The position numbers and the translations under genes were made by a program. This document shows positions 17,982 to 31,079 of a stretch of DNA of 64,000 bases, piece by piece. Positions within the stretch are counted from its first letter, which is position 1; each line of letters begins with the position of its first letter. Below the pieces are notes generated by a model. The model saw nothing but the letters and a program-made list of their open reading frames with translations. It did no database searches and had not been told where the DNA came from. The stretch is taken from the NCBI GenBank assembly GCA_963755915.1, contig CAVWLP010000003.1, positions 192,001 through 256,000 on the forward strand. The letters are read 5' to 3'. Origin of the DNA: an uncultured Phycisphaerales bacterium (GTDB taxonomy: Bacteria; Planctomycetota; Phycisphaerae; Tepidisphaerales; Tepidisphaeraceae).

Positions 17982-19203
17982 ATGGCCCTCGAACTTTCCC
18001 TGTTCGCCCTCTACCTCTTGGCCGGTCCGATTTTCTGGATTCTTTTTGCCATCGGCTCTGCTTCCAGCCGCCGGCGGATGATGCTCGTCTCCAAAACGGT
18101 CGCCCCGCTCCCGGACCCCCCACCCGCGGCAACGATCATCGTTCCCGCAAAGGACGAGGAAGGTCGCATCGCCCAATGCCTCGCTTCCGCTCTCGCGCAG
18201 GACTATCCCGATTTCCGCCTTCTCGCCGTCGACGATCGCAGCAAAGACGGCACCGGCAAAATCATGGACGAACTCGCCGCCGGCGACCCGCGCATGAGCG
18301 TCCTGCACATCGCCGATCTCCCCCCGGGCTGGACCGGAAAAAATCACGCCCTGCACAGTGCCGTGCAACAGGTCAAAACACCCTGGCTTCTTTTCATTGA
18401 TTCCGACGTCATCCTCCAGCCAGTTGCCCTCTCGCGGACTTTGCGATCCGCCGTCGGAAGACGCTACGACATGCTCAGCCTCATCCTCAAAAGCGAAACC
18501 CTCGGTTTCTGGGAAGACGTGCTGGTCCCCCTCGCCTCCACTGCCTTCGGCTCGGTTTACATGATGGGCCTGAGCAACTCCGAATCCAACAACTATTTCT
18601 TCGGCAACGGCCAGTTCATGCTCTTCCGCCGCGATATCTACGACCGCATCGGCGGCCACGAAGCCGTCAAGTCGCAATACAACGAAGACATGGCCCTGGC
18701 CCGCATCATGAAACTCTCCGGCCTGCGCCGCGCATCTTCTGGGGCACCCACCTCGGCTCCGTGCGTATGTACGACTCCCTCGCCACCATCATGCGCGGCT
18801 GGAGCCGGATCTTCTTCGGCTCCAGCAGCGGATCGCCCTGGCGAATCCTGGCACTCATCGCCTTCATCATCTTCAGCTGCTTCTCCTCGGGCGCTCCGGC
18901 GCCTGGGGCCTCTACCGCATCTTCCATCCTACGCCATTTCCCAGCGCAATCGGCTGGCTATCCGCCGCCGCCGTCCACTTCGCCCTTATGTTCACCCTCA
19001 TCGCCATCACCTACCGCTGGATGGGCAACCGCGCCCTTTATGCGGCGACCTTCTTCATCTCCATCTGGTTTCTCCTGGCCGTCCTCGTCCGCGCCATGTG
19101 GATGTGCCTCACTCGCCGCGTCGATTGGCGCAGAACGAGCTATTCGCATGCGATCGACGCCTCTGTCCCCCTCTCCCGGTACCCCGGGAGAGGGCCGGGG
19201 TGA
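17982..19203 (+). CDS. Family 2 glycosyltransferase (hopanoid/carotenoid-modifying type), membrane-bound; several frameshifts after 18730
   Basis: IVPAKDEE, VDDRSKDGT, GWTGKNHAL, FIDSD, NGQFMLFRR..Y..IGGH, ED..LA, RMY......GW.R. Confidence 0.8.
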
Positions 19204-19206
19204 GGG
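19167..19206. repeat. REP-like palindrome family A (CCCTC.CCC..CCCTCYCCC..GTAC..GG(G/A)GAGGG)
   Basis: Related copies at 24874-24915, 30252-30352 (interrupted), 43397-43435 and 48230-48269. Confidence 0.8.
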
Positions 19207-19369
19207 CCAGATAAAATCTGACGACCGAAAGGCTCGAAGTCTTCGCCGCGCATTTCATTTGGCAATCGGACTTCGGTGAGCTTAGTCGAACCGCATTCGG
19301 CATTCCCCCAAACTCGCAACCAACCTCCGAAACCCCTAAAATATCGTTCCCTCAACAAGGAACCCTCAC

Positions 19370-20419
19370 ATGCTCACATTTCTAGCTGACGACAACTCTT
19401 CTTCCGGGCCTCAGATGCTCTGGATCATCGTGGCCATCGTCGTCATCATCGTCTGCCTGGTCTTCCTGGCGCTGATTGCGAATTTTCTGGGCCTCTATAT
19501 TCGCGCCCGCGTCAGCGGCGCTCGCGTCGGCTGGCTGGAGCTGATGGGGATGCGGCTGCGGAAAGTGAACGCCCTGGTCATCGTCAACAGCCGAATCCAG
19601 GCCGCCCGCGCCGGGCTGCCCATCAGCCAGCCGGAAATGGAAAGCCATATGCTCGCCGGCGGCGACGTGCAGCGCGTCATCCGCGCCATGATCGCCGCCA
19701 ACAAGGCGGCCATCGATCTTCCCTGGCAGACCGCCACGGCGATCGACCTTGCCGGCCGCGATATCCTTGAAGCCGTGCAGACGAGCGTGAATCCCAAGGT
19801 CATCGACGTTCCCAATCCGCAGTTCGGCCAGCCGACGATCGACGGCGTCTCCAAGGATGGAATTCAGCTTAAGGTGAAAGCCCGCGTCACCGTCCGCACC
19901 AACATCCGTTCTCTCGTCGGCGGAGCGACCGAGGAAACGGTTGTCGCCCGCGTGGGGGAGGGAATCGTCAACGCCATCGGCTCTGCCGCGGATTACAAGC
20001 ATGTGCTGGAGAATCCGGACAACATCTCCAAGGCCGTGCTCGGCAAAGGCCTCGACGCCAACACGGCGTTTGAAATCCTCTCGATCGACATTGCCGAGAT
20101 CACCGTCGGCGAAAACATCGGCGCGAAGCTGGCGGCCGATCGGGCCGAGTCGGACAAACGCCGCTTCCAGGCCGAGGCCGAGCAGCGGCGCGCGATGGCC
20201 GTCGCGCAGGAGCAGGAGAACGTCGCCAACCAGGCGGCCAACCGCGCCATCGTCGTCCTGGCGGAAGCGGAAATCCCCAAGGCGATGGCCGACGCCCTGC
20301 GCAGCGGGCATATCGGCGTGATGGACTATTACAAGCTGAAGAACATTCAATCGGATACGTCGATGCGCGAAGCGATCGCTAAGCCCGGCGATCAGCAGGC
20401 GAAGCCACAGGGCTCTTGA
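19370..20419 (+). CDS. floA: Flotillin-like protein FloA (YqfA/SigW regulon family)
   Basis: [65 protein letters not shown]. Confidence 0.95.
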
Positions 20420-20420
20420 T

Positions 20421-20889
20421 ATGGACCTGATCGAACTGATTGTCCGCGCACTGATCGCCCTGTTCTCTGGGGGGGACCAACAGAGTCAGACGCCTACTCC
20501 GCCCGCCGCCCAGAACTCCTCCGCAAGCTCGCCGGCCCGGCGGAGGTCCGATGAATCGCCAAACTCAATATCCCCAGCGTCCGCCGGCCACGGGTCGTGG
20601 ACCCCAGCGCGGCGCTCCATCGCGCGGCGTGCCACAGCACGGCGCACCAACGCGTGGCGGACCACCGCGCGGCATGCCTCCGATTCCGCTACCTGCCGCC
20701 CCACCGCTGCCGGCAAGATCCGTGGCACAAAAACCGCAGGCCGCCGCGACTGTCGCCGCAGCTCCCCCACCTGCGATCACCGCAGCCGCCATCCGGCAGC
20801 TTCTTCTCTCGCGCCGGTCGGCGCTGCGGACGGTTTATGTGCTTTCTGAAGTTGTTGGTCCGCCGCTGGCTTTGCGGGAATCGGATTGA
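20421..20889 (+). CDS. YqfB-like Pro/Arg-rich protein; probable frameshift in the G-run near 20470
   Basis: N-terminal hydrophobic segment and C-terminal LSEVVGPPLALR motif, typical of genes following floA. Confidence 0.6.
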
Positions 20890-21771: not shown

Positions 21772-22032
21772 TTATTTTGGCGGCAGACCAAGGTTCTTTC
21801 GTGCAAGTGCCTCCAAACGCGCGTCAAAGGGTTTCCTAAATGCGTCGTCAGCGGCAATCGCCGAATTCAGATTTTCGTTTGCCAAGTCCACCGCAGCCCT
21901 CGACTCCGCGCTTTCTTCTGCCGTGTTGCGAAGGTACGCCCGCGTCACGGTATCTTTGGCCGCTTCGACCTTGGCGTTCGATTCGTCGAGCGCTTTTAGT
22001 TCGGCCGGTGTAAGAATATCTGAAAGTTCCAT
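21772..22032 (-). CDS. Hypothetical helical protein (86 aa)
   Basis: ORF tightly packed and co-oriented with neighbours. Confidence 0.55.
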   Translation of the reverse strand: MELSDILTPAELKALDESNAKVEAAKDTVTRAYLRNTAEESAESRAAVDLANENLNSAIAADDAFRKPFDARLEALARKNLGLPPK

Positions 22033-22050
22033 ATTTCTTCGTCCATGAGC

Positions 22051-22383
22051 TCAGGCCGCGTCGTCGATCTTCAGCTCGCTCGTGCTAAATCGCACGATCA
22101 AGAATTTGGCCGGGCGGGAAAATTCCCACCGCTTCTCTACCGCGAAAACGGCAATCTGCTCGAAGTCGCCGGACACGAGTTGCCGAAATCGATCTGTATC
22201 GAGAGGGCGCATCTCCTCTATCGAGAAAGGTTCGCTAACACGTAACTTGTAAACTGCGCCCGTCGCTTCGGAACGGAGGAAAATCTCGTAAGTATCGCCC
22301 CTGCGCCCCGTGGCGACCGTCTGGAAATTTTGAACCTTGGGCGAGAGGATTCTCGTTGGTGGTAATGGTCGTCTGTCGCTCAT
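22051..22383 (-). CDS. Hypothetical protein (110 aa)
   Basis: GGAGG RBS upstream of ATG; first gene of a three-gene unit. Confidence 0.6.
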   Translation of the reverse strand: MSDRRPLPPTRILSPKVQNFQTVATGRRGDTYEIFLRSEATGAVYKLRVSEPFSIEEMRPLDTDRFRQLVSGDFEQIAVFAVEKRWEFSRPAKFLIVRFSTSELKIDDAA

Positions 22384-22498
22384 GGTCCATCCTCCGTTGC
22401 TAATTGCCGGGAGTATGTGGGGAATCCCCTTCGGTCTATCGCCGCTGTGGGATATTCCCTTTAATCCCCAATCGTAATTTTATTTGTTATCACCAATG

Positions 22499-22613
22499 GA
22501 TATAGGACGCGAAGAAATAAGGGACCACAGATTACGCGGATGGACGCGGATAAAGCCAAATAAATCGTTTCTGAATTCTTATCCGCGAAATCCGTGAAAT
22601 CCGCGGTTCAATC
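22499..22613. repeat. Family B long imperfect palindrome (ACCACRGATTACGCGGAT...ATCCGCGAAATCCGTGAAATCCGCGGTT)
   Basis: Near-identical direct copy at 24682-24820 and a related copy at 27149-27286. Confidence 0.85.
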
Positions 22614-22846
22614 GTATTTCATGGCGACCTCAATTGAAGGCAGAATGTCGGTAGCGCACAAATCGGACCCCCTCCCTAACCCGCGCTGCGCGAGAGAGTA
22701 GAGCAGTTGAGAGTAGAACAGTAGAAAAATACAAATCTCAGGCGATAGTGGGGGTGGGGAAATGAGGGGCGCGCGGCAGGTCTCTTCTTCGCGCTCTTCG
22801 CGTCTTGGCGGTTAAAAATCTGCTTTCCGATCCGGCGAATTGGGGT

Positions 22847-23516
22847 TCACTTCTCGGTTCTGCCTCTGGCTAGGGCGCACTGTCCATGCCTTGTCAACTT
22901 CCACAACGGCACTGCGAGTGCCGCCCCCAGAATTGGCGCGGTGAGATAAACCCACAGTCCGGCGAGATGCCCCGACACGACGGCGGGCGCGAGAACGGGC
23001 GGGATTCATGGACGCGCCACAAATCGGACCGGCGAACATTGCTTCCAGGCCGATGATCCCGCCCACGGCGATTCCTGCCATCACGCCGGTTTCCTTCGGG
23101 CCGGTGGACACATTCAGGATGACGAGCATAAGCAGGCCGGTCAGGACGGCCTCCAGCGCGAACGATTGCCACGGCGAGCCTGCGGGAATGGTCGCGCCCA
23201 ACGCGGCGCGGTTGCCGAACATGGCGAGCAATGCGCCGCTCGCGACAAACGCCCCAAATAGCTGGGAGACGATGTACGGCACGACGTGCCGGGTGGGAAG
23301 ACGACGCGACAGCCAAAAGCCAATGGTCACCGCCGGGTTTAAGTGGGCGCCCGATACATCGCCAAACGTGTAGATCATCGCCATCACAATCAGGCCGAAG
23401 GTCATGGCGACCCCGACATGCGTAACGGCATGGGTCAGATCGTCAATCACAATCGCGCCGGTGCCCGCGAACACCAAGGCAAACGTCCCTATGGCCTCCG
23501 CAACGTAGCGTCTCAT
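22847..23516 (-). CDS. MIP-family aquaporin/aquaglyceroporin (arsenite-channel candidate); 2-nt frameshift near 22995
   Basis: SGAHLNPAVT and GASMNPARS NPA boxes. The corrected C-terminus reads APAVVSGHLAGLWVYLTAPILGA...RTEK*. Confidence 0.9.
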
Positions 23517-23938
23517 TCGGGAATCCACTTTCGCATGGCTTCATCAATTTCATCGCGAACGCGGCGAAATACTTCGAGCCGTTCGGATTCGCTTCCGGCG
23601 GCGGCGGCAGGGTCATCAAACGGCATGAAGGTTCGGGAGAACGCGCCGGGCCAGAGGCGCGGGCAGGACTGATTGGCATTATCGCAAACGATCAGCACGT
23701 GGCGCACCGGCGACTTGCCCAGAAAATCGCGGACATCTTTGGGCCGCCGGCCGCTGATGTCGATTCCGATTTCGTTCATCACCCGCACGGCCAGCGGATG
23801 TACCTCTGACTTTGGCTGTGTGCCGGCACTGGCGGCAGAGAAGTCATCCGCTTTGTACTTCTTCAAGAATGCCTCGGCCATCTGGCTACGCGCGGAATTG
23901 CCCGTACACAGCACCAGGATCATGGGTTTGTCATCCAT
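23513..23938 (-). CDS. arsC: Arsenate reductase, thioredoxin-coupled LMW-PTP fold
   Basis: CTGNSARSQMAE P-loop, resolving pair CDNANQSCP, FDDP, FRRVRDEI. Confidence 0.9.
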   Translation of the reverse strand: MDDKPMILVLCTGNSARSQMAEAFLKKYKADDFSAASAGTQPKSEVHPLAVRVMNEIGIDISGRRPKDVRDFLGKSPVRHVLIVCDNANQSCPRLWPGAFSRTFMPFDDPAAAAGSESERLEVFRRVRDEIDEAMRKWIPE

Positions 23939-23996
23939 ACGGATTTCCGGATAAAGCCACGCGGCGGTTGTGAACCTGCCGCGTGGGAAATGCTGT

Positions 23997-24074
23997 CTAC
24001 TTTTTGGTTCCGCACGGACAGCCGGGCGGACACTCCGGACAGCAAGAGCAGCAGGTGCAGGACAAAGCAGTCAT
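23997..24074 (-). CDS. 25-aa Cys-rich metallothionein-like peptide (absent from ORF track)
   Basis: MTALSCTCCSCCPECPPGCPCGTKK* (8 Cys); GAGGT RBS just upstream; first ORF after the MerR-type promoter. Confidence 0.7.
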   Translation of the reverse strand: MTALSCTCCSCCPECPPGCPCGTKK

Positions 24075-24141
24075 GGCACACCTCATGGTTAGAGACGGCC
24101 CGGAAGCCATCGCGCGATGGCACAGTTCCGAACCTTGTCAC

Positions 24142-24173
24142 AGTGTAGAGGTTGCACCTTAGTGCAAGGTCAA
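24142..24173 (-). promoter_or_regulatory. MerR-family promoter/operator
   Basis: TTGACC, 20-bp spacer, TACACT, with the dyad TTGCAC-TAAG-GTGCAA in the spacer. Long spacers with an internal dyad are the established MerR/ZntR/CueR architecture. Confidence 0.85.
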
Positions 24174-24616
24174 GGGCTTGCGCGTAGAACAGCGCGGCGA
24201 CGTGCAAATCGCGGATTTGCCGGTCTTGATTCGCTCGATTTCGTTGCACCAGTCGGGGCCGCCCTTGCAGCAGGATTTCAAGGCAATGGACAAGGCCCGG
24301 TCTATGCGCTTCAATTCGCCGAGGCGCTGCTTCACATCCGCAAGGCGGCGCTGAATAGCGCGGCGACTTCATCGCATGGCGGTTCATCCGAGTAGGTCAA
24401 TGCGAGCATTTCGCGAACGTCCTTCAAGCTGAATCCGGTCGCCTGCGCGGCGCGGATAAACTTCAGTCGTTCGGCAGCGCGAGAGGTGTACGTGCGGTAG
24501 TTAGCCTGGGTGCGGGCATCCGGCTTTAACAATCCCCGGCGTTCATAGAACCTGACCGTGGAAGTGGGAACGCCGGCAGCCCTGGCAAGCTCGCCAATTG
24601 TCATTGCGTCTTTCAT
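24159..24616 (-). CDS. MerR-family metal-responsive regulator; frameshift near 24357
   Basis: MTIGELARAAGV..STVRFYERRGLL, YRTY, LKFIRAAQATGFSLKDV, PPC. The corrected C-terminus IQRRLADVKQRL...KSCCKGGPDWC...ICTSPRC...LH* is Cys-rich. Confidence 0.9.
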
Positions 24617-24884
24617 CGTACCCTGGACATCTTTTGGGCGGGCGCGTCGAAAAGCAAGTTGAAACGGCACGCTTCAAAACAGATATAGGACGAAAAGAAA
24701 TAAAAGACCACGGATTACGCGGATGGACTTCGACGAGCGCTCAGTCGAGCGGCACGGATGAAGACAAAGAAATCGTTTTTGAATTCTTATCCGCGAAATC
24801 CGTGAAATCCGCGGTTGAATTAAATTTCCTGGGGATCTAGATGTAGGGCGGAATGCAGATGGCCCGTGAACCACCCCCCCCTCC

Positions 24885-25865
24885 CTAGCCCTCCCCCGGA
24901 GTACCGGGGGCGGGGAAATATGAGAGGGAGAGTGCGGCGAGTTTTTTCTTCGCGCTCGAATCCGCGTAACGCTGCCAGGCATCTGCATGGCCGGCGGGCT
25001 TTACCCGGCGCCCGTGCAGAATCTCGGCGATAATCTCGACCGTCTCGACGATGGTCGTCCCCGAGCGATTGAAATAGAGATTTCCATCCGCCACGGCGAC
25101 TTGACCGCTTCTGACGGCTTTGAGCTGGTCCCATCCTGGCCGACCCTGGAGCATCGGCAACTCACGAAGCGTTTTCTCGATGGCGTAGCCGCAGGGGGCG
25201 ATGATTAAGTGGTCGGGGTCGGCGTCGCGCACGGATTCCCAGGAAATCGGGCGGGAATATTGTCCCTTTTCTCCAAGCAACAGCCAGCCGTTGGCGGCTT
25301 CGACGAGTTCGGGTCCCCAATTGCCCATTGAAAAGATCGGGTCAGTCCACTCGAGCATGACGACCGTCGGTGTGGGCCGGTCTTGTACCGCTTCCGTGAC
25401 GGCTTGGATGCGGGCTCGCATTTGGGCGACGAGCGTTTCGCCCGCCGCGCCAAGATTCATCGCCTGGGCGACGCTTCTGACGCCTGCAAAGATCCCATCG
25501 ACGGAGCCGGCGGTGAGGGCCAACACCTGCGGGGCGAGGAGGCCGCAACCGGCGCGCTGGACATCCTGCGGCGTGACCGCGCATACCTCGCAGTGCGCCT
25601 GTGCAATCAGCAGATCGGGGCGCAGTTCGCGGATGAGGTCCGAATCCACGTGGTAAAGCGGCTCGCCGGCCTTGAGCCGGCGCCGTACCTCGGCGTCTAT
25701 CTTCACGCTGGGCATGTTGACATCGAACGCCGCCCTGGTGCAGGCCGGCAGCTTTCGGACCCAGGGCGGGTTATCGCATTCATGAGATCGACCCACCAGC
25801 GAATCGCCGGCACCGAGGGCACAGACGATTTCCGTCGCGCTGGCTAGAAGTGAAATCACTCTCAT
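24885..25865 (-). CDS. Cobalamin/Fe-siderophore-type periplasmic-binding-fold protein (BtuF-like, no signal peptide)
   Basis: RVISLLASATEIVCALG, VGRSHECD.P, PDLLI.Q..CEVCAV, LEW.DP, DGN.YFNRSG. Confidence 0.8.
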   Translation of the reverse strand: MRVISLLASATEIVCALGAGDSLVGRSHECDNPPWVRKLPACTRAAFDVNMPSVKIDAEVRRRLKAGEPLYHVDSDLIRELRPDLLIAQAHCEVCAVTPQDVQRAGCGLLAPQVLALTAGSVDGIFAGVRSVAQAMNLGAAGETLVAQMRARIQAVTEAVQDRPTPTVVMLEWTDPIFSMGNWGPELVEAANGWLLLGEKGQYSRPISWESVRDADPDHLIIAPCGYAIEKTLRELPMLQGRPGWDQLKAVRSGQVAVADGNLYFNRSGTTIVETVEIIAEILHGRRVKPAGHADAWQRYADSSAKKKLAALSLSYFPAPGTPGEG

Positions 25866-25879
25866 GGCTGGTTCACCTC

Positions 25880-26602
25880 TTACACCGGTGGAATCATTTC
25901 CGCCACCGGCGCCGGCGACGCTTGCGCTCCCTCGGGCAGAAGGTCGGCATAATATCGGCCGTCCCGGATCACGGTCTCACCCACCCGCACGGCCACGGGG
26001 CGGTGGAAAATGGGGCCGTCGTAAACGAAGGAGTGAAATTCACCGTACTCGCCGCAGGGGTCGATTCCGGGCGGCAGATCGCGCAGAAATTCGGCGTCGA
26101 AGGGCCTGCCGACAAATCCCGGTCCCACCTTCCCCTCAACGCAGGAAATGAAGGCCTTGAATCCCATCGCGATCACCTCGCGGGCTAACTGGGTCGTGTC
26201 CCGCTTCCAAACGGGAAAAACTCCCCGCATACCGGCCTTGGCCAGATTGGCCTCACGCCAGGCCCGAAGGTCTTCCAGAAACAGATCTCCAAAGGCGACG
26301 GTTTGGACGCCCCGCGCCTGAAATTTGGCCAGCGCATCGCCCATGATCTGCTCAAAAATTTCGTTGGTGCAGGGATGGGAGCCGCCGGATGGGAAGTAGA
26401 TTTTTTCCAGGGCGATGCCGAGCGCTTCGGCCTGCTGGTCGAGAAGAATTTCGCGCACGCCGTGATGGCTGATCCTGCGATATTCTTCGGATACAGAAAC
26501 GAGCAGCGCCACGATTTCGTACTGGCCGCTCTTGAGCAGCTCATAAACGGCCATGGCGCTGTCTTTACCGCCGCTCCAGGACATGATCACAGGCGTCTTC
26601 AT
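25880..26602 (-). CDS. Adenine nucleotide alpha-hydrolase, Dph6/MJ0570-like ATP-binding protein
   Basis: SWSGGKDS PP-loop, FGDLFLEDLR.WRE, DPCGEYGEFHSFV.DGP.F. Confidence 0.88.
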   Translation of the reverse strand: MKTPVIMSWSGGKDSAMAVYELLKSGQYEIVALLVSVSEEYRRISHHGVREILLDQQAEALGIALEKIYFPSGGSHPCTNEIFEQIMGDALAKFQARGVQTVAFGDLFLEDLRAWREANLAKAGMRGVFPVWKRDTTQLAREVIAMGFKAFISCVEGKVGPGFVGRPFDAEFLRDLPPGIDPCGEYGEFHSFVYDGPIFHRPVAVRVGETVIRDGRYYADLLPEGAQASPAPVAEMIPPV

Positions 26603-26647
26603 CTACTCTTCTCCCGATGGCACGAACCACGGCTCGCTTAACTCTAC

Positions 26648-27040
26648 TTACACGGCCGAGAATTTGTCCAGGCATGACGGACAGAGACAACCTTGGTAAT
26701 CCTGCTCCAGCCGCTTAAGCGTATCGGGGCTGAGGCGAACGGTCTCGCACCAGCAACCGCCATCCGTGCAACAGTCAAAGCCGTTGCCACACTTCGGACA
26801 GACTTTCGCTTGCACGCGTGCGGGACATTCGGCACTGGCAGGCTTACTGTTTGGATACGGACAGTTTCGGCAGCCACTGCCGCAGCACGAGCCGCGAGCG
26901 AGAAGGAAATCGCGCGAGATCGCACCATCCTCGTCAAGAAATGGAAGCAATTGGCCTGCACAAGTTTCACAAACCTCGCGGGACAATGTCTGACGGACCG
27001 CCAGGCACTTTGGGCAGAATCGAAGGATCCTTAGCGGCAT
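26648..27040 (-). CDS. Cys-rich protein (zinc ribbon, DUF5522-like and CWC-like domains)
   Basis: CPKC..CETC, FLLARGSCCGSGCRNCPY, CPKCG..F.C....CWC, CLCPSCL. Confidence 0.75.
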   Translation of the reverse strand: MPLRILRFCPKCLAVRQTLSREVCETCAGQLLPFLDEDGAISRDFLLARGSCCGSGCRNCPYPNSKPASAECPARVQAKVCPKCGNGFDCCTDGGCWCETVRLSPDTLKRLEQDYQGCLCPSCLDKFSAV

Positions 27041-27390: not shown

Positions 27391-29306
27391 TCAGTTCCGA
27401 CCCAGATGAATCGCCAGCACGGTCACATCCGAGGGCGTGATGCCGCTGATGCGCAGGGCCTGCCCCAAACTGCGGGGATTGAATTTCGTGAACTTCTGCT
27501 TTGCTTCGTTGCGCAGGCCGACGACCCGCGAATAATCCGTGGCCAGCGGGATCAGCTTTGTCTCCAGCTTGGCGAACCGCTCGATTTCGCGGTCCTGGCG
27601 GGCGATGTAGCCTTCGTATTTGATGCGAATTTCCAGACGCTGGGCGACGTCGGGGGAGACGAAGCGGCCAGTTGCGGATAGCGGCGGGTCATCTCTTCAT
27701 GCGCGAAATCCGGGCTGCGGAAAACGGTTTCGGCGCGAAGCTCGCGAATTAACTCGGCGCCGGCGGAAATCGCGTCCCGGCGGGCGGAGAACTGGCGCCA
27801 GCGATGGTCGTCGACCAGGCCGATCTCGCGGCCGATGGGGGTGAGGCGTTCATCGGCGTTGTCGTTGCGAAGATGCAGGCGATGCTCGGCGCGGCTGGTG
27901 AACATGCGATACGGCTCGGTCGGTGGCTTGGTCACCAGGTCGTCGACGAGGACGCCGATGTACGCCTGATCGCGGCGCAGGACGAAATCGGCCTCGCCGC
28001 CGGCGGCATAGCGGGCGGCGTTGATGCCGGCGATGAGGCCCTGGGCGGCGGCCTCTTCGTAGCCGCTGGTGCCGTTGATCTGGCCGGCGAGAAACAGGCC
28101 GGCGATGCGCTTGGTTTGGAGCGTGCTTTGGATCTGCGTCGGCCAGACCATGTCGTATTCGACGGCATAGCCATAGCGGAGAAATTTCGCGTGCTCCAGG
28201 CCGGGGATCAGGCGGACGATGTGTTCCTGCACGTCGGCCGGGAGCGAAGTGCTGATGCCGTTGCAGTAGATTTCGTCGGTGTCGAGGCCTTCGGGCTCGA
28301 GGAAAATCTGATGGCGATCCTTGTCGGCGAAGCGGACGACCTTGTCTTCGATGCTGGGGCAATAGCGCGGGCCGGTGCTTTGAATCTGGCCGGTGTACAT
28401 CGGGGCGCGGTGGAGATTCTGGCGGATGATTTCGTGGATTTCCTGGCACGTGCCGGTGATCCAGCAATTCACCTGCGGCAGCGGAGGGGACCATTCACCC
28501 GCATATTCATTCAAATAGGAAAACGGCGCGGGCCGCTCGTCGCCGGGCTGGTTTTCGAAGGCCGGAAAATCGATCGACTGCCGCTGCAAGCGCGGCGGGG
28601 TGCCGGTCTTGAGGCGGCCCATTTCCAGGCCGAGGTTTTGGAGGCAGGCGGTCAGGCCAGAGGCGGCAGCTTCGCCGACGCGGCCGCCTTCGGTTTGTTT
28701 TTCGCCGGTGTGCATGAGGCCGCGGAGGAAGGTGCCGGTGGTGACGATTGCGGCGCGGCAATGGAGGTGGGTGCCGTCTTTGAGGATGATGGCGCTGACG
28801 GCGGGAGTTGTGCTCGTGCCGAATCCACTGTGTGAGTTTTGGGCTTTGAATTCCGCCGGTGAGGACACCGGCGGCACTCTGGTTGCCGGCGAAGTTGTGG
28901 AGGGAAAAGTAGAGCAGAAGGGCGAGGTGCAAATCTCGGCGACTTCGCCTTGAACGATCGTCAGGTTTGGGCAGGTGTGCAAAAGCTCCTGCACGCGTTT
29001 GGCATATTTGTATTTGTCGGCCTGGGCGCGCGGCCCCCACACTGCCGGGCCCTTGGAGCGATTGAGCATGCGGAACTGAATTCCGGTGTCGTCGGTGGCG
29101 AGGCCCATCAGGCCGCCGAGGGCGTCGATCTCGCGGACCATCTGGCCCTTGGCGAGTCCCCCGATGGCCGGATTGCACGACATCTGGCCGATTTTGGTTT
29201 GGTCCATGGTGATCAGGGCGACGCTGGCGCCGAGGCGGGAGGCAGCCCAGGCGGCTTCGGCGCCGGCGTGACCTCCGCCGATGATGATGATGTCGTAACC
29301 GGCCAT
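27391..29306 (-). CDS. mnmG: tRNA uridine 5-carboxymethylaminomethyl modification enzyme; frameshift near 27660
   Basis: IIGGGHAGAEAA, MSCNPAIGG.AKG, LNRSKGPAV, RLKTGTPPR, GPRYCPSIEDK, AGQINGTSGYEEAAAQG, EPYRMFTSRAE; C-terminus ISGITPSD. Confidence 0.96.
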
Positions 29307-31079
29307 TCCTGGACTACCAAGTCCCCAAATTCGTCGTGCCACAAAATCTTTTCGCCATTATAAGAGCGCTGCTCGCGCATGGCCACGATGGTGAGATCGG
29401 GGGGCTGGGGCGGCATTTTTCCCGCGAGGATCAGGGGAATCCTGTCGGCGGCGGGAAGATACTGGCCGATCGGCTCGGAGATCGGCATGGGGACCTCGGC
29501 GGCCTCCCGCCAGCAGAGATAGGTCGGCCACGTTCCGATGTTATCGACCAGGGTATGGGCCGGGGTATTCTGGCGAATCCAGTCACACATTTGTACATAT
29601 TGCGCGGACGGCTCGAAGAGGTTTTCCATCTGCGCCCATCTGCGAAAATCGACGACCGGCGCAACGAAAATTAAGAGCATGCAAATCCACTGGGGCGCTT
29701 TTAGCCTGGCCCCGAGGCAATTGAGCGCGGCTGCCGCGAACATCGCGAGGAAATAATTCAAATCGGCAAGAAATCGAGAGGGGGTAAAAAATCCTGCCGT
29801 CAGGTGAAATGTGGCGGGAATGACATATTCGCCCAGCACAAACATTACCGCCAGCAGGGTCGAGGCGATGATGACGATCGGGTCGAGCCGGATTTTTCGA
29901 GCGAGGGCCAAGGCGATTCCGGCAAGGGCAAAACCGCTGAGCACATATCCCAGCTCGCGCGGAAGAGTGATCAGCGAAAGGATCGGCTCCCCGGCCGTGG
30001 TCATGCCGGTGGAGTGAAACGTGTTTAAATGAGCGGCGTAGGGGATGAGATAAAATGCGTCCAGGAGGATGCCGCAGATGGCGGCGGTGGCCAGGTTGGG
30101 CCAGCGTTTATCCCGGAGGATCTGCCACAAGGCGATGAAGAGCAAAATCGCCGACGCGGTAATCATGACGTGGTGGTGGACGAGAATAGTGGATGCGAAG
30201 AGCAGGGCCATTGCGACGGTTTGGCGATATTTTGTGGCGCTAGCGAACGAACCCCCTCCCCTGCCCTCCCCTCTTCGAGCCTGAGCCTCTCTTCGAGCCC
30301 GAGCCTCAGAGCCGAGGGCAGAGCCGAAGGCCGGATTACCGGGGGCGGGGGAAAGAGTCAGCATCGCGATGAACAGGAGCATCGCCAGTTCATTGGGCAG
30401 CGCCGCCCAGCGGAAATAATCGATGCTTCCATCCCAGGCCCAAAGGCCATAAATGCCCGCGGCATAAATTGCGATGGTTGCGCTGCCACAAACCCGACGT
30501 GCCAGGAGATACATTTGTGCCGTGGTGAGGACGCCCAGCAGCGGTATGAGATCTTTGAAGACGGTGTGCAGGGGCAAGCCGGAAATCCCCGACAAAAGCA
30601 CCAGCAGCACGTGGCTGCCGGTGGGATAATTCAGCGGCACGCCGGCGAAGGGCCAGCGATCGATGGCGTGGTGAGTGAGCTGAATCTGGCGGGCCAGAAT
30701 CAAATGAAACACCGGATCGAGCCACCCCGCGGGCAAAACCCGTGGGAGCGCGACGGCATAACGGCTAACGCCGACGACGACGAGAATCAAAACCAGCCAG
30801 ATTTGCGAAGGATTTCTGCTTGTGCCAGGGGTCGCGCGTGCCCTCACGCAACCCACGATACAGAGGAGCGTAAAAATTCCCCAAACCGGATAAAACAATC
30901 TCAGATCAAAGTGGCTGACAACGGCCCCAAGGTAGACAGCGCCCGCCAGGCCGAGCGAACTTCCAGTCGCAAACCAGTCCAGCCACCCCTCACCAAGCGC
31001 TGAGAGCGCGAGCCAGACAAATGCCCGGGATTAGAAAAAGTGCGGCGGCCGCGAGAAAGCGGATCAGCTCCATCGCCAT
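29213..31079 (-). CDS. Polytopic membrane protein (GT-C-like, tentative); frameshifts near the 5' end
   Basis: Many TM helices; WLDPVFH and NYPTGSH loop motifs resemble GT-C/DUF6541-like proteins. Contains an in-frame repeat-derived insert. Confidence 0.6.
30252..30352. repeat. Family A REP containing E2, which contains a second E2; lies in-frame inside a CDS
   Basis: Outer E2 is 30271-30288 plus 30319-30330; inner E2 is 30289-30318. Each is 30 nt. Confidence 0.85.

Follow-up and report, generated by a model that had tools for sequence, protein, structure and literature searches.

The minus strand of the window, by which we mean the whole 64,000-nucleotide stretch of DNA analyzed, carries an operon in which a merR gene lies upstream of, and co-directional with, a small cysteine-rich open reading frame (ORF), an arsenate reductase gene (arsC) and a MIP channel gene. 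The original prediction had placed all of these parts here, together with a promoter that contains a dyad and the merR stop codon, and each of them was found. Family scans of the window ORFs recognized MerR HTH, LMWPc/ArsC and MIP. The features are as follows.

24159-24616, minus strand: merR, MerR-family regulator, 152 aa after a 1-base correction (family scans, homolog alignment)
24142-24173, minus strand: MerR-type promoter with operator dyad (pattern match, conservation in relatives)
24097-24134, minus strand: 5'-leader hairpin (alignment of relatives; no Rfam match)
23997-24074, minus strand: Cys/Pro-rich peptide gene, 25 aa with 8 Cys (ORF and ribosome site; no Pfam or NCBIfam match)
23957-23986, minus strand: GC-rich hairpin 3' of the peptide stop with a short U tract (stabilizer or leaky terminator)
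23513-23938, minus strand: arsC, arsenate reductase of the LMW-PTP fold with a three-Cys thioredoxin-type pattern (family scans)
22847-23516, minus strand: MIP channel of bacterial NIP/AqpN type with two NPA motifs (family scans, orthologs)

In the window assembly, a 1-base deletion near 24356 splits the frame of merR and a 2-base deletion near 22990 splits that of the MIP gene. The missing bases are present in short-read contigs that are otherwise letter-identical (run X1 at both sites, run X3 at the MIP site) and, at both sites, in a 95%-identical relative (L014). Both frameshifts are therefore assembly errors, and merR and the MIP gene are intact in nature; the intact frames in the short-read contigs ruled out a pseudogene reading. 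More apparently frameshifted genes lie at 17982-20849 and 27552-29342, which we take to be glycosyltransferase-like and mnmG/gidA-like, and they fit indel errors across the assembly.

The sequencing runs containing this locus are soil metagenomes. In the host genome (6.6 Mb, 81% complete), tblastn detected no second copy of the window MerR or channel, and there was one weak second LMWPc match, no Acr3 and no ArsB over cut-off. Seven ArsR-family HTH matches are present, all far from the operon, and the module itself holds no arsR, as had been predicted. Upstream, on the minus strand at 24885-27040, are genes for a periplasmic binding protein, a diphthamide-synthase-like ATP pyrophosphatase and a Cys-rich CWC/DUF5522 protein, a stretch that is conserved in L014. 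Palindromic intergenic repeats flank the operon at 24861-24920, 24691-24830 and 22501-22610 (81, 10 and 7 BLAST matches in the genome, respectively) and probably cause an apparent 22725-24877 joint in the short-read contig comparison.

The reductase and the channel are ordinary parts. ArsC has the P-loop C-T-G-N-S-A-R (CX5R) and a C-x6-C pair, the three-Cys pattern by which it would be of the thioredoxin-coupled type originally proposed, and its best NCBIfam match, TIGR02691, scores 108.7 bits, below the 174.3 cut-off. The MIP start at 23516 overlaps the end of arsC through an ATGA, in line with the translational coupling foreseen for the pair. The channel is not GlpF-like; its NPA motifs, selectivity filter and closest structures point to a NIP/AqpN-like protein. 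Among 17 orthologs the ar/R filter read by motif is FAAR in 14, WAAR in 2 and incomplete in 1, and the best PDB matches are to rice NIP2;1. FAAR is described as a bacterial NIP filter (PMC3355642), and AqpN genes are reported in ars operons (bioRxiv 10.1101/2021.04.14.439814). The locus resembles ArsR-arsC-AqpN operons in its arsC and FAAR-filter channel and differs from them in its MerR regulator and in having a Cys/Pro micro-peptide as first gene.

A distinct clade of mercury-type MerR regulators

The window MerR scores over cut-off for PF13411/PF00376/PF09278 in Pfam and has the traits of its family: an N-terminal winged HTH, a long alpha5 coiled-coil helix, and cysteines both at the start of alpha5 and in the metal-binding loop. 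The predicted structure of an intact relative (P0005) has this helix at residues 80-118, resembles CadR, MerR and PbrR structures, and is of low confidence in the C-terminal tail. Searching with the N-terminal part of the protein retrieved 1088 homologs, and cysteines were scored in the 107 full-length sequences among the best 120 of them. The regulator had been described as having a Cys-rich tail; in its place we found four invariant cysteines, C81, C116, C117 and C124, each present in 106-107 of the 107, while the distal tail cysteines are variable. Three of the four form a loop that reads C116-C117-x6-C124 in the window MerR.

We gathered 202 loci of relatives, dropped 4 and collapsed the remainder at 95% identity to 172 rows. 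A regulator tree was built by a quick method from 113 columns with the loop columns excluded and a midpoint root; it omits the window itself (L004 and L013), a frameshifted sequence (L116) and a truncated one (L012). One clade of 58 of the 172 rows (SH-aLRT 98) contains all 56 rows with the CC motif plus two variants, L007 and L108, and sits among mer-linked relatives. The loop is CC-x6-C or CC-x7-C in 55 clade rows and C-x7/8-C in 102 of the 116 other rows, and 48 clade rows have an Asp two places before the last loop cysteine.

Current annotation labels the CC-clade proteins mercury regulators. P0005 reaches none of the NCBIfam cut-offs for MerR, ZntR, CadR/PbrR and CueR: the ZntR-type model scores highest (107 bits, cut-off 143), followed by the mercury MerR model TIGR02051 (99.5, cut-off 150.85), CadR/PbrR (90.5, cut-off 151.45) and CueR (87.1, cut-off 147.4). 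The best PDB sequence matches of the clade are Hg-MerRs of the Gram-positive type (Bacillus MerR, 4UA1) and Tn501 MerR (5CRL), with which it shares the alpha5 N-terminal cysteine and the loop cysteines; it differs in having an extra adjacent cysteine, a shorter loop (CC-x6/7-C against C-x7/8-C) and a score below the TIGR02051 cut-off. The ESM Atlas returned generic MerR clusters only.

The distribution of the clade is narrow. Only 6 of 63 family genomes match the MerR profile at 1e-35, and the five best are CC-type. Strong matches are confined to the family of the window, and the ars-type promoter pattern occurred in 0 of 400 other genomes sampled from the phylum. One locus (L022) is labelled Methylococcaceae and may represent a transfer or a mis-binned contig. 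Among four longer matches, a weak search, none was a CC-type MerR fused to ars genes, and three were MerR-MerB proteins. Such MerR-MerB fusions occur among the mer-linked sisters (L080:893-2026; P0271-P0273), and 18 loci carry, behind mer-linked sister MerRs, a small Cys-rich and apparently secreted protein that matches no family (L044:6585-6887 and similar ORFs).

A conserved promoter at the merR stop codon

The promoter consists of a -35 box, TTGACC (24173-24168), and a -10 box, TACACT (24147-24142), separated by a 20-bp spacer, between which lies the operator dyad TTGCAC-TAAG-GTGCAA (24167-24152). The merR TAA stop (24161-24159) forms the dyad centre, and the last codons of the gene, P-L-T-L-H-stop, overlie the -35 box as well as the first half of the operator. 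The window contains this pattern a single time and none of 100 shuffles contains it, although it was derived from this very site, which makes conservation the stronger criterion. Of the 55 clade loci that reach 30 nt or more past the stop, 54 have a TTGAC-N21-TAnnnT promoter at the merR stop, so the MerR-type promoter proposed for this site is a conserved feature. A dyad operator inside a promoter spaced by 19-20 bp is typical of metal-sensing MerR activators. Its clade consensus is TTGACC-TTGCAC-N4-GTTCAA-CCTC-TACACT, and in 45 clade loci the -35 box begins either 4 or 15 bases ahead of where the stop codon ends. The overlap of the promoter with the end of merR accounts for the conserved C-terminal L-T-L-H.

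An operator of this type also occurs in 59 of 107 loci first classed as other, a few of which were later placed within the clade. It is similar to the firmicute MerR signal, a 9-4-9 dyad in a 20-bp spacer, and the 4-bp-centred dyad in a 20-bp spacer is a further likeness to Hg-MerR in the account given in PMC1526738. Because this operator type is common to the clade, its mer-linked sisters and the firmicute signal, we conclude that the regulator took over its DNA-binding side from the MerRs of mer operons and that the change lies in its sensing loop.

Arsenic genes follow the clade MerR, and ArsR leads other arsC operons of the family

After de-duplication at 95%, arsenic-labelled genes lie downstream in 40 of the 56 CC rows (33 of the 37 with at least 600 nt downstream) and mer-type genes in none. 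The 16 CC rows with no marker are mostly short contigs. By comparison, 66 of the other 116 rows lead mer-type genes (merT/merP/merA/merB-type), 49 have no marker and a single row (L089) has ars genes, with arsC lying behind its own ArsR-arsD. The cargo markers were derived from the same loci in which they were counted, mer labels came from tblastn and Pfam (MerT, MerB, MerC, HMA, disulphide reductases) rather than MerA cut-offs, and one row (L200) was counted as unlabelled. The 40-versus-0 split is moreover one evolutionary event on the tree, and as such it is a matter of consistency and not 40 independent tests.

A weightier point is the shuffling of unrelated arsenic genes behind the same regulator. 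The clade cargo comprises arsC (30), MIP (23), arsM (7), acr3 (3), gapdh-arsJ (1) and DUF6428 (1), the last of which we take to be arsenic-linked. For ArsM, Acr3, ArsJ and ArsJ-GAPDH, representative proteins score over the NCBIfam cut-offs, and the DUF6428 assignment also passes. Together with the presence of the peptide as first gene in many loci (see below), the arsenic labels bear out the conserved synteny anticipated for the operon. In one locus (L123:4952-5338), a CC-type MerR promoter is followed by an apparently leaderless ORF, 129 aa or longer, that begins with a signal-like stretch and contains a CC motif; it has no match in Pfam or NCBIfam and is possibly an unrecognized arsenic-related protein.

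In the family of the window, the same arsC cargo is found under two unrelated regulators. Among the best 30 family matches to the window arsC, 19 are led by ArsR, 5 by the clade MerR (window included) and 6 by no visible regulator; the clade MerR has been swapped with ArsR. The five MerR-type genomes lack Acr3 and any ArsB over cut-off, and searches with the family's own ArsR gave HTH-level matches only. In a single-contig genome (G379) arsC and the operator are each matched just once, both within a merR-arsC-channel-arsM operon, and another genome (G007) has both MerR-led and ArsR-led arsC operons. An ArsR-family gene lies downstream in 1 of the 58 clade loci (L124), where the peptide is followed by this gene and a PHO4-family transporter. 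The family ArsRs in ArsR-led loci (L222:2422-2787 and others) are of an unusually Cys-rich type, with a CVC motif and C-x-CC and C-terminal CC clusters.

The Cys/Pro-rich peptide is an optional first cistron

The 25-aa peptide with 8 cysteines, which was correctly anticipated, has its ribosome site, GAGGTG, at 24084-24079. Of the 49 clade loci that extend 200 nt or more past the promoter, 34 have as first gene a Cys-rich ORF preceded by a ribosome site. The clade peptides span 21-38 aa; 36 of them contain 25% Cys, 22% Pro and 0.1% His, and 25 of the 36 end in Lys. Synonymous exceeds non-synonymous change in all of the 40 close peptide pairs listed, with the choice of pairs at 70% identity or more biasing this result. 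The peptide is a real coding gene and an optional first cistron. Neither the window peptide nor seven relatives matched Pfam (PF02069 included), very short queries being weak tests, and no NCBIfam family covers it. The bacterial metallothioneins SmtA/BmtA and MymT are likewise small, Cys-rich and linked to metal regulons; the peptide differs from them in being about half their size, Pro-rich, almost His-free, without a Pfam match and in an arsenic operon. The N-termini in L007 (64 aa), L139 and L142 are hydrophobic and signal-like, which suggests exported forms.

Hairpins bracket this cistron. Relatives preserve the inner 6-bp stem of the 5'-leader hairpin through compensatory base changes; on the alignment, to which the structure was applied from the window sequence, pairing is 84-90% in the inner stem and 54% in the outer stem. 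Rfam gave no match over 22000-25500, and the hairpin is likely an mRNA-stabilizing element. A strong hairpin also lies 3' of the peptide in most peptide-bearing loci, and the terminator scan made no call for the one at 23957-23986. Such bracketing would favor an excess of peptide mRNA.

A short first ORF that is 25% Cys and 22% Pro and has a hairpin behind it is also what would be expected of an attenuator leader that ties arsC to cysteine supply. We consider this role, which concerns the peptide only, improbable: in three loci (L127, L128, L132) the hairpin is absent and the peptide stop runs into the start of arsC, and in four others (L139, L142, L007, L108) the peptide persists with no ars marker downstream. 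The signal-like N-termini and the excess of synonymous change, the latter subject to the bias of the identity threshold, speak against it as well.

The four loci without an ars marker after the peptide are, on the other hand, the best evidence for a different reading, in which the regulator would respond broadly to soft metals (Hg, Cd, Zn or Cu as well as As) and have a metallothionein-like peptide as its main target, with the ars genes lying behind a leaky terminator. The strong hairpin after the peptide in most loci would fit this, as would the top NCBIfam score of P0005 for the ZntR type, since ZntR also has a CC pair. E. coli ZntR (PDB 1Q08) further shares the alpha5 cysteine and the 20-bp spacer. 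The clade loop nevertheless lacks the His of the ZntR motif CCx3Hx4C and differs from it in spacing, the operator is unlike the 22-bp ZntR palindrome, no zntA-type cargo was seen in the clade and a mer-type or HMA marker follows none of the 56 CC rows. Moreover, among the 15 loci that lack the peptide, 12 have arsM, arsC or the channel gene as the first ORF after the promoter, and 13 begin directly with one of these or with DUF6428; in L023 and L129 the arsC ATG lies 6 nt past the -10 box. Such placement argues for direct control of the ars genes by the MerR promoter. A scan of 16-18-nt spacers, a weak test, found no separate sigma-70 promoter ahead of arsC. We therefore regard a broad soft-metal sensor as unlikely, if somewhat less so than the attenuator.

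Arsenite or antimonite as the predicted inducer

The reading that we favor is a MerR activator of mercury type that responds to As(III)/Sb(III) and has displaced ArsR; judged by gene context and loop motif, this is probable. The original prediction had left the inducer as arsenite or a metal, and we narrow it to arsenite or antimonite since clade members precede ars genes of several unrelated kinds and in no case mer genes. In two reviews, the arsenic and antimony sensors described are ArsR/SmtB repressors and the inducer lists for MerR proteins include neither As nor Sb (PMC11672702, PMC12665635). The antimony sensor AntR is likewise of ArsR/SmtB type (PMC12641948, PMC12665635).

Metal sites described in one of these reviews provide a comparison for the loop: a planar three-Cys site in Hg-MerR, CCx3Hx4C in ZntR and CCx5C in AfArsR (PMC11672702), the ArsR/SmtB protein of Acidithiobacillus ferrooxidans. 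AfArsR is reported to bind As(III) through CC-x5-C; the decapeptide alone forms a trigonal-pyramidal AsS3 site and is ordered by As(III), not Hg(II), and the affinity of a model peptide is much higher for Hg(II) than for As(III) (PMC11212059). The clade CC-x6/7-C with its conserved Asp looks like an analogous site at the end of the MerR alpha5 helix. The two have in common a short single-chain CC...C tri-thiolate at a helix end and ars genes downstream (PMC11212059, PMC11672702), and they differ in fold, in spacing (x5 against x6/7) and in logic (a repressor leaving DNA against a predicted activator). A PDB search with the C-terminal 58 aa of MerR found no ArsR, and a loop grafted from AfArsR is accordingly disfavored; as no homology was detected between the two, convergence would be the likelier origin. 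Against the arsenic reading, C81 and two loop cysteines could still form an HgS3 site.

The inducer might also be methylarsenite or Sb(III) in place of inorganic arsenite, or the signal might be indirect, through thiol stress caused by arsenic. The presence of arsM in 7 clade loci, often as first gene, would agree with this, and the CC-x6-C loop could form disulphides. Selectivity for Sb(III) or MAs(III) is known among ArsR-family sensors, for example AntR (PMC12665635). The commonest cargo, in contrast, is arsC with the channel, and one locus carries gapdh-arsJ; a general family scan recognized no arsH, arsP or arsI among 32 downstream ORFs. Both arsC with a channel and gapdh-arsJ handle inorganic arsenate and arsenite. 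Overall, we give organoarsenical, exclusive antimony or thiol-stress sensing little credence.

For the favored activator of As(III)/Sb(III) response, we propose the following mechanism. A regulator descended from mercury-operon MerRs and re-tuned to trivalent metalloids would switch on the operon. Its dimer would stay on the dyad within a weak promoter with a 20-bp spacer, and As(III), probably also Sb(III), would be held by the three thiolates of C116, C117 and C124, with or without C81 of the partner subunit. By analogy with what is known of MerR, the metalloid-loaded dimer would then untwist the DNA and allow transcription to start. ArsC would turn arsenate into arsenite, thereby feeding the inducer pool, and arsenite would exit by way of the NIP-like channel. 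The peptide, which its hairpin-bracketed first cistron would supply in excess, may buffer As(III), the least certain step and one on which we are evenly balanced.

Implications

The system is real and conserved, and its regulator would be a MerR activator with a predicted new inducer class. In the openly available literature searched, mostly through listings and abstracts, we found no description of an arsenic-sensing MerR or of the Cys/Pro peptide. In its fullest form, which we advance tentatively and with somewhat more doubt than belief, the proposal is that of a first metalloid-sensing MerR activator: one that kept its operator, gained an AfArsR-like trigonal-pyramidal CC-x6-C site by convergence, displaced ArsR across a soil bacterial family and induces arsenite-binding metallothioneins of 21-38 aa, rich in Cys and Pro, some of them exported.

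Surveys of ars operons would misread these loci, since their regulators are annotated as mercury regulators and the peptide has no Pfam or NCBIfam family. Low-background biosensors could be built on an arsenic sensor of the activator type. Finally, the mer-linked and ars-linked sister MerRs share their operator and differ mainly in one loop, and as a pair they would make the discrimination between planar Hg(II) and pyramidal As(III) by three cysteines testable by loop swaps.
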